From Blastocatellia bacterium (GTDB taxonomy: Bacteria; Acidobacteriota; Blastocatellia; UBA7656): a DNA stretch of 64,000 bases. Within the stretch, counting starts at the first letter, position 1. Every line of letters begins with the position of its first letter. The stretch spans positions 96,001 to 160,000 of the forward strand of contig CAVXWP010000009.1 in NCBI GenBank assembly GCA_963765495.1, written 5' to 3'. The notes below the pieces were generated by a model. It searched no databases. It was given only the letters and a program-made list of their open reading frames with translations, and was not told the origin of the DNA. The translations under genes and the position numbers were made by a program. Below are positions 19,103 through 56,067 of the stretch, piece after piece.

Positions 19103-19258
19103 AAGCAGTAGGCAGTAAGCAGTAGGCAGTAGGCAGTTAGCTGACGATCAAGACCAGAGCGACGGGGTCGGAAATATCTGGCCAGGCTATGGATATGAAT
19201 AGTTGGTACTCGCCTCCGTCAATTACTGCCTACTGCCTACTGCCTACTGCTTACTGCC
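19103..19258. mobile_element. Miniature inverted-repeat element, GCAGTAG-arm family, copy 1
   Basis: (GCAGTA[G/A])n left arm and (CTACTGC)n right arm. The ~85-nt core is homologous to the copies at 31670 and 55919, in the opposite orientation. Confidence 0.85.
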
Positions 19259-20357
19259 CGGAGAGCATATAGACCGCAAACGAGGCGAGCCAGTGTTCTC
19301 CGGCATAGTCGCCGCTCGCAACATGCGCGAGCGCGTCCTTTGCATGGAGAATCGAGGCGTCGGCCAGGACTTTTCGCGCCGGGTCTTTCAGGGGCAACGC
19401 GGCTGCGACGGCTCGCATGCACCAGGCGCGGCTCAGATTCAATCCATCGAGATGGACGATCTTTGGGTCCGAGCGATCAGTGACAGTTGCGGGACGAAGC
19501 AGGGTGCGAGGCTCGCCTCGCTCAACCCCGGGCAGGAAACGGTGAAACCAGCGCGCAAACTCTTCCGGGCTCATTACACGCCTCATAAGGTCCGCTTCCA
19601 TAAGGGCCGGAGAGAAAAAATCTTCGCCGCCCGGCTCCCACCGGGCCGGATAGTTTTCATCCGCCGAGAAGTATTCAAGACTCCGCTCTCGAATCAGATC
19701 AACCAGTTTTTGATTGCCCGCCGTCTTCGCGTAATCCAAGGCAAACGCCAATCCAAAAGCCGTGTTCGGATGCACGCCCGTGCGTATCGGATAGGTCTGT
19801 TTTGGCAAAAAAATCGAGTACCTTGCGGCGAGCGCGTCGGCAAGCGGGCGCAGATTCGCCGACCATCGTTTTGCGTCCGCATCATCCCACCGCCCCAGTT
19901 CTTCGGCAAGCTTCAGCAGCCACGCCCAGCCATATGTTCGCTCGAAAGACTGCCGATTTGACTGATCGAGATAGGCGGTTTCTACTTCGATATTTTTTGC
20001 CGCGAGGTTTTCAGTAAGCGCCTCCCTTATTTCGGCAGCCTCTGCAAGGTCGGGATAGAGGCGCAGCAACCGGGCAAGCATCCAGTGACCGTGAACCGAA
20101 GAATGCCAGTCAAAACACCCGTAAAAGGCCGGGTGAAGCGATCTGGGGCTCCGCACCTCGCCTGCATCATTCATCACGTGATCGAGTTTGTTCGGATACT
20201 CCTGTCTGATGCACTTCAGCGCGAGGCGCGCGAAACGAGACGCCTGCTCACGGCTCAATTTCAGTTCATCGCTCTTTGAATTGTTGTCCATGGCCTGAAA
20301 CGGTTCGGCGATCAGAAACAGGAAAACAAGTGAGATTGCCCATCTGAACTTGAACAC
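19251..20357 (-). CDS. DUF2891 family secreted protein
   Basis: 'LHPAFYGCFDWHSSVHGHW', 'SFERTYGWAW', 'HLDGLNLSRAW', 'YAGEHWLASFA'. GTG start with an AGGAGG RBS and a signal peptide. Confidence 0.9.
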   Translation of the reverse strand: MFKFRWAISLVFLFLIAEPFQAMDNNSKSDELKLSREQASRFARLALKCIRQEYPNKLDHVMNDAGEVRSPRSLHPAFYGCFDWHSSVHGHWMLARLLRLYPDLAEAAEIREALTENLAAKNIEVETAYLDQSNRQSFERTYGWAWLLKLAEELGRWDDADAKRWSANLRPLADALAARYSIFLPKQTYPIRTGVHPNTAFGLAFALDYAKTAGNQKLVDLIRERSLEYFSADENYPARWEPGGEDFFSPALMEADLMRRVMSPEEFARWFHRFLPGVERGEPRTLLRPATVTDRSDPKIVHLDGLNLSRAWCMRAVAAALPLKDPARKVLADASILHAKDALAHVASGDYAGEHWLASFAVYMLSGQ

Positions 20358-20413
20358 CGATTCCTCCTTTTTGGCATTTAAGATAGCTGCTAAATGCGGC
20401 TGGTGTCTATAAA

Positions 20414-20530
20414 TGATGCGTAATGCGTGATGCGTGATGCGTGGCCTACATGCAAGTCTCAGGTTTAAGGAACCTTGAAAGCCTGCTAAATCACGCATCA
20501 CTTTTCACGCATCATTTATCACGCATCGCG
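20414..20530. repeat. Heptamer-armed inverted repeat (CGTGATG / CATCACG family)
   Basis: TGATGCG-TAATGCG-TGATGCG-TGATGCG ... TCACGCATCAC-TCACGCATC-TCACGCATC. Confidence 0.85.
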
Positions 20531-20625
20531 CTCCCCTAGTAAGGCTTTCGGATTTCTAGTAAACTCAAGTGCGGGCGCTCAACAAAAGGCGGTCGGCTCT
20601 TTGTAATGCGATCCCGGAGCCTTGG

Positions 20626-54001: not shown

Positions 54002-54718
54002 TTATCGCAATGTGCGAAGCGAGTCGGAAAGATGCGGAGTCGCGTTCAGACTGAACAGTCTCAGTTCGCCGTTGTAGGGTTTGAATATAGTGATATTGGT
54101 GTTGTAAAGCACCCCGAGCACGCTCAACATTTTCTCTTCCGAAAGCGCGAGCGCCGCGCCCGTAACTATTGTGATGGGTGTGGCTGATGTGAATACAGCG
54201 ATTGCTTCATCCTGAGTTCCGGTCAATAAATCTGCGGCGCAATTCTCGATGCGGGCGCGGAAAGCGGCCCAGGATTCTCCCGCGTAATCGGGATAGCGGT
54301 TCTCCATCCACGCGCACATAATGGCGCGGTCGCATCGGCCCGTAGCTCCGCGCGTCGTATGCGGGTCGAGGGCGAGCGCCGATTTCATCTCTTCGAAATC
54401 CCGGGCAAACTCCTCGTCGTCTTCTCTCATCCTGAGCACGATGCCGCGATACACATCGGCCAGGCTGAATTCGTTCCAGCGCTCGTCTGTAATTATATCG
54501 GGCACGTCGGCGCTTGATTCTCCGAGCGCGCGGCTCACGATTTCAGCCGTGTGTTGCTGCCGCCTCATCCCGCCTGTATAGATTGTAGAGAGGCGCACAC
54601 CCTGCCCGGCAAGATACTCGCCAAGCAATCGAGCCTGCTCGTGACCGAGGTCGGAGAGAACATCGTAATTGTCGCGCGGTCCCGCCTGCGCGTGGCGGAT
54701 GAGGTATATAGTAGTCAT
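54002..54718 (-). CDS. Histidine phosphatase (phosphoglycerate mutase-like) family protein
   Basis: 'IYLIRHAQA', 'LSDLGHEQA', 'RQQHTA', 'ESWAAFRARI'. Confidence 0.9.
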   Translation of the reverse strand: MTTIYLIRHAQAGPRDNYDVLSDLGHEQARLLGEYLAGQGVRLSTIYTGGMRRQQHTAEIVSRALGESSADVPDIITDERWNEFSLADVYRGIVLRMREDDEEFARDFEEMKSALALDPHTTRGATGRCDRAIMCAWMENRYPDYAGESWAAFRARIENCAADLLTGTQDEAIAVFTSATPITIVTGAALALSEEKMLSVLGVLYNTNITIFKPYNGELRLFSLNATPHLSDSLRTLR

Positions 54719-54740
54719 TTAGAATCCCAGGTCTTGAATA

Positions 54741-55859
54741 TCAATTTTCAGAGCGTCGGGCCAGTTCGAGCGCGGCGCGACCGAGCCCCTCAACCCTGCG
54801 GCCGAAGTCGCGGAATCTCTCATCATGCGTCTGCCCTCTGACAAAGCGAAAATAGATCTGCTGAAGCACGACGGCCACCTTGAAGAGCGCGAAGGTCTCA
54901 TAAAAATTTATTCCCGATAGATCGCGCCCGGTCTGAAAGGCGTATCGCTCGATTATCTCGGCGCGCTTCATCCAGCCCGGCTCTGTTGTGACCGGGCTGA
55001 TTGATTCGCGGCGCGCCTCGGGGTCTTCTCTTTCGGCCCAGTAACATAGAAATATTCCAAGATCGATCAGAGGGTCGCCCACCGTGCACATCTCCCAATC
55101 GAGCACGGCGACTACGCGAGCGGGGCGCTCGGGGTCGAGCATCACGTTATCAAGTTTGAAATCGTTATGTACGAGCGTGGCGGGGCGGCCGGCTTTCGGG
55201 TCAGGTTCAGGCGGAATTCTTTCCGATAACCATAAGGCGACATCATCAAGCTCGGGCAACTCGCTTGTCTTCGAGCGATGCCAGCGGTCGCTCCATCCGC
55301 GTACCTGCCGCGTTACAAACCCTACGGGCTTGCCTATCTGCTCCAGCCCCGAGTCGCAGATGTCAACCGCGTGAAGCGCGGCCAGCGTGTCTACCATCGC
55401 CTCGCTAACACTGCGGCGAAGCTTTAGATCATCGCCAATCTGTTCGGGAATCTCTCGGCGGATGACGAGGCCGCGCCTCCGTTCCATCAAATAAAAAGGC
55501 GCGCCTATGACGGAAACATCTTCGCACAAAAGGTAGGGCCGGGGCGCGAGCGGGAAGAAAGGATGGATAGCGGCCAGCAATCGCTCTTCGCGCGGCATAT
55601 CGTGAGCCGTGGGGGCGACCGGGCCGAAAGGAGGTCGCCGCAATACGAATTCGTGCCCGCCCAGCCGGATCATATAAGTCAGATTTGAATGGCCTCCCGG
55701 AAACTGCTCTATCTCTATCTCGGTCGAATCCAGCGACTCGCCCGGCATCAAAACGGGCAGGCGCTCGCGCAGATAATTTTCGAGCGCGTGAGGGTCGAGT
55801 TCTTCTCCGGGTCTGATTGGCGCTGTGTCTTTAGTAGCTGCCGCTTCGCTCAATATCAT
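54741..55859 (-). CDS. APH-like phosphotransferase (ACAD10/11 kinase-like family)
   Basis: '[10 protein letters not shown]', 'VLRRPP', 'AHDMPRE', 'VHNDFKLDN', 'LDWEM..GDP'. Confidence 0.93.
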
Positions 55860-55918
55860 CTCCCAATCTATCTTCTCCGCATTTGCGCTTGAGCGATGAT
55901 ATTCGCTGACGGGGCTGA

Positions 55919-56067
55919 ATTCAAGGCAGTAGGCAGTAGGCAGTTAATCGCGACGGAGGCGCGTACCAACTATTCCTATGCATACCCCGGCTGGCTTTCT
56001 TTAGCAGTGACCATCGGTTCAGTGTTTACTGCCTACTGCCTACTGCCTACTGCTTACTGCCTTGAAT
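55919..56067. mobile_element. Miniature inverted-repeat element, GCAGTAG-arm family, copy 3
   Basis: ATTCAAGGCAGTAGGCAGTAGGCAGT ... (CTACTGC)n-CTTGAAT; core GACGGAGGCGCGTACCAACTATTC shared with copies 1 and 2. Confidence 0.85.

Follow-up and report, generated by a model that had tools for sequence, protein, structure and literature searches.

Among the long simple repeats of many bacteria, those with heptanucleotide units are the most frequent, and the cyanobacterial STRR repeats are abundant intergenic tandem heptamers; the proteins of the family PF05635 are likewise very common orphans. To our knowledge, neither the repeats nor the proteins have an accepted function. REPINs are gene-less hairpin doublets that form populations within genomes without target duplication, and a single-copy RAYT gene flanked by the same repeats is their presumed mobiliser. 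The intervening sequence (IVS) in the 23S rRNA of Coxiella burnetii is 428 nt long, has an S23p open reading frame (ORF) and a 28-bp terminal stem, and is described as having tandem GACAGAT heptamers whose number differs between strains and as being cut by RNase III in the stem; the same paper cites the IVS of Leptospira (PMC4990558). In Xanthomonas campestris, 70 convergent pairs of GGGAATC heptamer arrays have been reported (Rehm et al., 2015, PMC4692102), and the TAACTGA repeats of the Beggiatoaceae are nearly all direct arrays upstream of start codons, with one inverted set among 170 (MacGregor, 2015, PMC4679880); what is said here of these three papers refers to the portions of their text available to us. 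In this study, we analyzed a stretch of 64,000 nucleotides from a Blastocatellia bacterium (GenBank assembly GCA_963765495.1, contig CAVXWP010000009.1, positions 96,001 to 160,000; hereafter, the window), in which a hairpin element with inverted arms of tandem GCAGTAG heptamers occurs three times. With a probability of about 0.6, we consider these three loci to be members of a gene-less hairpin family of about 44 copies, which is found in this genome only and belongs to an IVS-type class of heptamer-armed elements.

An earlier note, made from the letters of the window alone, had placed the element at three positions, and all three copies were located there. They have the same layout, namely a left array of GCAGTAG, a non-repetitive core of 83–90 nt, and a right array of the complement. 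The features at these loci are as follows, in window coordinates.

19103..19258, minus strand: copy 1 of the GCAGTAG-armed hairpin element, with a subfamily B core (core profile match at C9:115142-115221, E 2.4e-13)
19138..19224, minus strand: core of copy 1, with the 25-nt module at 19193-19217
19251..19253, minus strand: stop codon TAA of the gene upstream of copy 1 (19251..20501, minus strand), inside the arm
31670..31843, plus strand: copy 2 of the element, with a subfamily B core (arms and core profile)
31701..31790, plus strand: core of copy 2, with the 25-nt module at 31711-31735 (3 mismatches)
31669..31671, plus strand: stop codon TAG of the gene upstream of copy 2 (29701..31671), overlapping the first arm unit
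31844..31870, plus strand: remnant of the conserved valS promoter region (CTGACC ... CCCTCTTAATTTT), from comparison with relatives
55919..56067, plus strand: copy 3 of the element, including the 7-nt palindromic flanks ATTCAAG and CTTGAAT
55945..56027, plus strand: core of copy 3, its 3' half closest to subfamily A, with the 25-nt module at 55955-55979
55896..55924, minus strand: promoter-like site of the left divergent gene at copy 3 (TTGAAT, 17 nt, TATCAT)

Copy 1 lies between two minus-strand genes, copy 2 between a gene for a 656-residue protein and valS, and copy 3 between divergent genes. A repeat finder returned long-stem inverted arms for all three (26–33 nt, 90–96% complementary): 19105-19137 and 19225-19257 for copy 1 (33 nt, 94% complementary, with 27 nt at 100%), 31670-31700 and 31791-31821 for copy 2 (31 nt, 90%), where the right array extends on to 31843, and 55919-55944 and 56042-56067 for copy 3 (26 nt, 96%). 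The claim of the earlier note that the copies have a homologous core was borne out, in that cores 1 and 2 are 85% identical across 81 nt and core 3 has 40 nt in common with them, at 87.5% and 85%, respectively. The numbers of arm units differ between the copies, as had also been stated, and they differ between the two arms as well. No PF05635 ORF was present in the window loops.

The genome (7.3 Mb in 17 contigs; assembly 97.9% complete) is the only representative of its genus among the genomes compared. Searched with an iterated nhmmer profile of the core, it gave 53 matches at E < 1e-3 and 44 at E < 1e-6, the latter dispersed over unlinked sites; two of the 44 (C11:29494 and C7:843035) share identical flanks, which leaves 43 independent copies. 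Further copies of the core, on which the earlier note had made its reading depend, thus exist throughout the genome. Twenty-three copies form a tight subfamily A, and the remaining 20, among them copies 1 and 2, are heterogeneous; between the subfamilies, the first ~35 nt of the core are 76% identical and the remainder just 30%. The cores of the family are non-coding and 57–110 nt long, and each arm has roughly 1 to 10 GCAGTAG units, so that arm lengths range from 7 to 98 nt and are unequal even within single copies. Over 33 GCAGTAG elements, the arms are 97% complementary, but the arms of different elements match each other equally well; variant GCAGTAG units are mirrored at a fraction of 0.17 within elements vs. 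0.12 between elements, with no element-specific signal. The 25-nt module of the core (GGAGKYGGRTACCAMCTATTCATAT, with up to 3 mismatches) has 52 matches in this genome and none when its pattern is read backwards, and the core matches are therefore not due to chance. The module gave no match in 57 other genomes of the same order, of which 52 are of the same family, and none in one scan of metagenome contigs, and a stricter core pattern gave none in public genome contigs. The core is therefore private to the lineage, as far as these collections reach, and the family has spread in this lineage after the split from the sampled relatives. The module was also considered as a promoter, a candidate that was rejected after it showed neither an orientation bias towards downstream genes nor, by eye, a convincing -35/-10 pair.

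The arms, in contrast to the core, are widespread. In public genome contigs, GCAGTAG arms with loops of 70–100 nt were found at no fewer than 107 loci in many phyla, all with cores unrelated to the one described here, and GCAGTAG arms with loops of 372–402 nt were found at 34 loci. In 31 of these 34, the loop encodes a PF05635 protein above the Pfam cut-off, and the other three are two frameshifted copies and one locus without a match; the Pfam bAvd model also matched weakly at the long-loop loci. About 24 of them belong to Mesorhizobium and the remaining ones to Thermoguttaceae, Acidobacteria, Caulobacteraceae, Rhizomicrobium, Solirubrobacterales, and Pseudomonadota; the GCAGTAG-armed PF05635 genes come from about eight lineages. 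Within the family of the window's genome, GCAGTAG arrays are present in 26 of 53 genomes (0 to 437 matches, with counts that differ widely within genera), and of five array-rich relatives examined, three proved to have a PF05635 gene with GCAGTAG arms. A sample of 80 PF05635 loci drawn from many phyla was also inspected. A period-7 array lies no more than 250 nt away at 37 of these, with strict inverted pairs at 13, and all other periods from 5 to 9 together gave three arrays. The window's genome has four PF05635 genes, each between inverted heptamer arrays (AGGGATG, GGGGCCA, GAGTTTT, and GGATTTT). PF05635 has been likened to Avd in a paper on diversity-generating retroelements (DGRs); in the literature that we searched, no general account tying heptamer arrays to PF05635 genes was found, and the Coxiella IVS paper alone mentions heptamers, in passing. 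The core profile matched none of 221 loci elsewhere (the 107 GCAGTAG hairpins, the 34 long-loop loci, and the 80 PF05635 loci) at E ≤ 10, so the core is not a remnant of those elements. Because the window loops lack PF05635 and elements with the same arms elsewhere carry it, we file the window copies as gene-less derivatives of the class and not as full members. Contigs of two other soil metagenome runs matched the window in the GCAGTAG arrays only (19103-19258 and 31790-31843), with high summed depth, which indicates that such arrays are common in other soil organisms.

The full-length members of the class carry a small PF05635 gene (S23p / 23S_rRNA_IVP, a four-helix bundle like the Avd of DGRs). 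These results suggest a mechanism in which the arms would be cis-acting ends recognised by an IVP-type protein. For the family described here, this protein would have come in trans from a GCAGTAG-armed full-length element. Such a cognate partner may since have been lost from this genome, in which case the family would now be an immobile fossil. Where transcribed, the perfect stem of 20–35 bp would presumably be cut by RNase III, by analogy with intervening sequences. Judged from the sequence, the missing target duplication and the lack of an insertion sequence (IS) partner would fit a non-DDE mechanism. The family is most likely selfish DNA rather than a set of RNA genes, and it is probably inactive and no longer moving. 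The inference of the earlier note, a non-autonomous dispersed element, is in agreement with 44 unlinked copies, with their absence at three orthologous sites, and with gene-carrying elements that have the same arms in other genomes. The private conserved core and the evidence on insertion sites are new here.

The comparison with relatives, which the earlier note had proposed as a look for empty sites, found the element absent at all three orthologous sites. For copy 2, 22 of the 29 loci of relatives keep the upstream gene next to valS, with spacers of 88–626 nt, and none of these 22 loci has a GCAGTAG element. Upstream of valS, a GGGATAGAGAGG-TTGACCATCGC-CTCTCTATCCC-TTTTAATT stretch is conserved in nearly all relatives; there, the promoter region (TTGACC-17 nt-TTTAAT) is preceded by the complementary arm GGGATAGAGAGG, an arm that is missing in the window. 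We read this stretch as a predicted 12-bp hairpin of which the loop and 3' arm would coincide with the -35/-10 pair, and it may be a regulatory element of valS (window 31844-31925). Copy 2 ends exactly before (C)TGACC, and the 5' arm of the hairpin is gone together with about 33 nt preceding it; half of the valS hairpin has thus been destroyed by copy 2 in this genome.

At the copy 3 site, 24 of 29 loci retain the divergent gene pair, and a conserved GAATTCAAG-like anchor is present in 22 of them; the state of the site was read as the content between this anchor and the TTGAAAC -35 box. Eight loci have a short "empty" form of 4–19 nt, seven have an insert of 38–58 nt, two have a long non-heptamer palindrome, and five have a heptamer-armed hairpin with other arms or cores (three flagged by the run finder and two by eye). 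Among the eight short forms, five closely resemble the small palindrome GAATTCAAG-CCGGCTTG-TTGAAAC. One of the five hairpins has GCAGTAG-like arms, and the other member of its genus has the short form. In the window, copy 3 is flanked by ATTCAAG and CTTGAAT. Each of these halves doubles as a -35 box, one for either divergent promoter, and the box of the promoter-like site listed above is the left half of the palindrome that copy 3 splits. Copy 3 is therefore at the centre of a pre-existing small palindrome, a site that other genera have filled with different hairpin inserts, and this points to the targeting of palindrome centres. At the copy 1 site, the N-terminus of the downstream gene had no homologue at 1e-20 in 52 relatives, and synteny was anchored on the upstream gene instead. 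The upstream protein of 15 relatives extends past ...YMLS by another 4 to 8 residues, and here it ends ...YMLSGQ*, with the G and Q codons and the stop all lying in the arm. Immediately behind this gene, other hairpin repeats are found in several relatives.

We also analyzed the placement of the 44 copies, using rough gene calls of our own (5213 genes, 84% coding). Seventeen copies lie in tandem spacers in the same sense as the genes, 12 in tandem spacers in the opposite sense, 11 between convergent genes, and two between divergent genes, and there is one copy inside a called gene and one at a contig end. No orientation bias relative to the genes was detected in the tandem spacers (17 vs. 12, p 0.46). 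Divergent spacers are under-used: they hold 2 of 42 copies but make up 18% of the spacers when counted (p 0.025) and 24% when measured by length (p 0.002). A gene 3' end lies within 75 nt of the core in 36 of the 44 copies. Repeated GCAGTAG closes all three reading frames and CTACTGC closes none, and the GCAGTAG sense is on the left in all 29 strict pairs, so that a reading frame entering from either side is stopped. Because the arms read inward close all three frames, the genes that abut copies 1 and 2 take their stop codons from these copies. For annotation, this means that such inserts supply stop codons, shorten C-termini by a few residues, and adjoin promoters. The absence of target duplication noted earlier for the three copies extends to the family: direct flank repeats of ≥ 4 nt were found in 5 of 43 copies, which is not above the 2.5 expected from the flanks of different copies. 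Palindromic flanks of 7 nt are present at three sites, and the position at a hairpin tip is clear for copy 3 and suggestive for a few others, without significance across the family.

The core and its module also occur in other combinations. Of 92 GCAGTAG-type runs, 61 are within 200 nt of a core match, and most of the others, by eye, flank a second core; few GCAGTAG hairpins have short "empty" loops. The second core, of ~113 nt and unrelated to the first, lies between GCAGTAG arms at about 16 loci (e.g., C1:735076-735267 and C9:211246-211419) and contains a CGGAT-rich palindrome resembling window 11651-11758, so that it looks like one repeat nested in another. When hairpin loops were clustered, the cluster with the first core had 23 members with GCAGTAG-type arms and eight with GAGTTTT arms; the eight GAGTTTT-armed loops that hold the module are 32–41 nt long and longer, and many GAGTTTT hairpins have loops of 9–22 nt. 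In C9:363975-379319, there are five GAGTTTT-armed hairpins within 16 kb, with loops of 32–41 nt that consist mainly of the core module. Six module matches without arms are located inside called genes (C9:632735-632759, C4:99998-100022, C15:87925-87949, C1:488058-488082, C8:536884-536908, and C9:227146-227170), with about 0.01 expected by chance according to our estimate. The one at C9:632735-632759 is in a loop of a membrane protein that is about 20–25 residues longer than in most relatives, and this sequence comparison suggests an in-frame insertion of a core fragment.

Several observations weigh against the reading of the three loci as gene-less members of an IVS-type class. In a six-frame search of the 97.9% complete assembly, no GCAGTAG-armed PF05635 gene was found, and trans-mobilisation in this genome is consequently a conjecture; the autonomous partner with the same arms that the earlier note had envisaged may have counterparts in the PF05635 genes of other genomes but was not found here. 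We know of no IVP protein for which a role in mobility has been shown, and of no precedent for the copying chemistry of the class. In the portions of their paper available to us, the Coxiella authors suggest an ORF in decay and a greater importance of the RNA (PMC4990558). In a quick and poorly resolved tree, the GCAGTAG-armed IVP proteins are not one clade, with five changes of which at least two are forced; the proteins group mostly by host, and arm sequence and protein are thus not strictly co-inherited. Nothing points to recent movement: identity between independent copies never exceeds 92%, which makes the family look old, and the median nearest-neighbour identity in subfamily A is 87%. 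Among sequencing runs, the stretch was found in one DNA run and in no RNA run; its reads gave no presence/absence variant, and contigs at ~3x depth bridge copy 2 unchanged. Copy 2 replaces about 45 nt and has no clean position within the ancestral hairpin. Palindromic flanks beyond the arms show no significant enrichment in the family as a whole, with 7 of 43 copies having ≥ 4 nt vs. 4 expected when boundary slack is allowed, and the placement analysis rests on home-made gene calls.

Four other explanations were weighed. The arms and the core may have separate origins, arms-only GCAGTAG hairpins having spread first and the core, or its module of 25–45 nt, being a separate tiny element that inserted later into the loops. 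The second core between the same arms, the module in GAGTTTT-armed loops, its arm-less copies in genes, one of them in the lengthened protein loop, and its conservation between subfamilies in which the rest of the core has diverged all agree with such an origin. We nevertheless regard it as unlikely, because most GCAGTAG runs adjoin one or the other core and "empty" loops are few, because no clean-bordered insertion of the module alone could be reconstructed, and because the module lacks repeats and ends of its own. The same evidence bears on the statement of the earlier note that the element is copied as a unit, which is only partly borne out: the second, unrelated core also lies between these arms, and the module is present between GAGTTTT arms as well. 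It is quite improbable, in our view, that the copies are structured noncoding RNAs or cis-regulatory hairpins kept by the host as 3'-end stabilisers, terminators, or processing sites, with a functional core. The proximity to gene 3' ends, the avoidance of divergent spacers, the conservation of the 5' module across subfamilies, and the 97% complementarity of arms whose cores have drifted to a median identity of 81% could be so explained. However, no Rfam family matched anywhere in the window at the gathering score, and the best match around copy 2 at E ≤ 1 was a plant miRNA model at 19 bits vs. a cut-off of 90, which is at chance level. Folding the 23 subfamily A cores to a consensus (-2.4 forward and -5.8 reverse) did no better than folding shuffled columns (-2.7 ± 2.0), and not one pair had changes on its two sides; no consensus fold was obtained for the heterogeneous set, and single sequences folded with similar energies on both strands and without a common core fold. 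The check for covariation that the earlier note had recommended thus gave no compensatory change, and its alternative of a repeated noncoding RNA loses further ground through the even orientation in tandem spacers. The absence of the core from 57 relatives and the lack of any flagged terminator-like T run at copy 3 also argue against a role for the host.

The remaining two explanations invoke known transposases. In size and inverted ends, the copies resemble MITEs (miniature transposable elements with inverted repeats), and their heptamer arrays could be the terminal repeats of a DDE insertion sequence by coincidence, but this is very unlikely: target duplication does not exceed the control level, the core profile matches no longer element, arm lengths lie anywhere between 7 and 98 nt and differ between the two sides of a copy, and the gene found between such arms is PF05635 and not a transposase. 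An origin as REP/REPIN-type hairpins moved by a Y1 transposase (RAYT or IS200 type) would agree with the gene-less hairpin pairs and missing target duplications of REPINs, and the genome does have two Y1 genes (PF01797, at C17:143990-144620 and C9:13570-14110). Both genes, however, are flanked by GC-rich palindromes of their own (CCCCGCAGC..GCTGCGGGG and GTAGGGGCAGGGCTTGTCCCTGCCC) and not by heptamer arrays, and we give this explanation hardly any credence.

Heptamer-armed hairpins form a wider class in this genome. At period 7, 571 tandem runs with 3 units or more were counted, as against 14, 26, 8, and 7 at periods 5, 6, 8, and 9, respectively; with a looser cut, there are 880 period-7 runs, 417 of which form 210 inverted pairs. 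The dominant heptamer groups are CGTGATK, CATCCCT, GGCAGTA, GAGTTTT/GAGATTT/GGATTTT, and GGGGCCN, and the loop sequences group by arm type. The stop-bearing sense of the heptamer is always the left arm (AGGGATG, 44; GATGCGT, 38; GGCAGTA, 29; GAGTTTT, 25; and CGTGATT, 23), and GGGGCCG and GGATTTT have stops in neither sense. The window has eight other hairpins of this kind (11651-11758, 14322-14423, 20409-20519, 36068-36214, 39285-39377, 44609-44709, 53861-53982, and 60281-60356), with arms of CGGATNN, CGTGATK, GGGGCCG, and GGATTTT heptamers; those with CGTGATK arms share a loop family of ~45 nt that has 37 members genome-wide. The Y1 palindrome GTAGGGGCAGGGCTTGTCCCTGCCC is also present inside the loops of heptamer hairpins. 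A separate feature of the window, at 58209-58285, consists of three tandem copies of a GC-rich unit of 24–27 nt (GGCGGCGGATAACCTCCCCCGGGCGG) that are 88–96% alike, and is probably a coding repeat.

A broader reading, which we put forward only tentatively and consider doubtful, is that heptamer-armed hairpins are one pan-bacterial mobile class that inserts at hairpin tips and gene ends, with the Avd-like PF05635 protein as an arm-binding factor for mobility or maintenance. Gene-less derivatives would then pick up private cores, and the 25-nt module would be a second cis-acting site for copying. If true, this would explain the long-recognised excess of heptanucleotide repeats in bacteria and the function of the very common orphan family PF05635. 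To this question, the locus contributes a family without genes that has arms matching those of gene-carrying elements from other phyla and from sister genera, a private conserved core, which points to copying as whole units, and one orthologous site at which the hairpin inserts differ from genus to genus.

Among known systems, REPINs and RAYTs are similar in that they form gene-less, hairpin-forming populations without target duplication, as the window family does. They differ in that the flanked gene of the heptamer class encodes a four-helix-bundle protein without known catalytic activity and not an HUH endonuclease, in that the arms are tandem 7-mers and not a single palindrome of ~20 nt, and in that the Y1 genes of this genome have different repeats of their own. 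The TAACTGA repeats of the Beggiatoaceae are also abundant intergenic tandem heptamers, are common to distant phyla, and have stops in the "forward" sense, but no conserved core is described for them in the portions of that paper available to us (MacGregor, 2015, PMC4679880). The paired heptameric simple sequence repeats (SSRs) of Xanthomonas are closer to the window family, which, as inverted heptamer pairs near ORF ends in intergenic regions, fits their description: they are inverted array pairs, mostly intergenic near an ORF and rare between divergent genes, at positions not conserved between related species (Rehm et al., 2015, PMC4692102). However, they are treated as G-quadruplex-forming, whereas GCAGTAG has no G tract, and the available portions of the paper mention no conserved sequence that the arrays enclose and no connection with PF05635 genes. 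The ORF-bearing 23S rRNA IVS are the described examples of the PF05635 heptamer-hairpin class. Unlike them, the window copies have a non-coding core of 83–90 nt in place of an ORF, lie between protein genes and not in rRNA, and belong to a family of 44 copies in one genome. In other respects the two are alike, as far as the portions of the IVS paper available to us go: both have a long terminal stem with tandem-heptamer arms whose unit number varies between copies or strains, and the same arm design carries a PF05635 gene, which GCAGTAG itself does in other genomes. Copy 3 also has in common with them the insertion at the tip or centre of an existing hairpin, and both have a patchy distribution that suggests horizontal spread.

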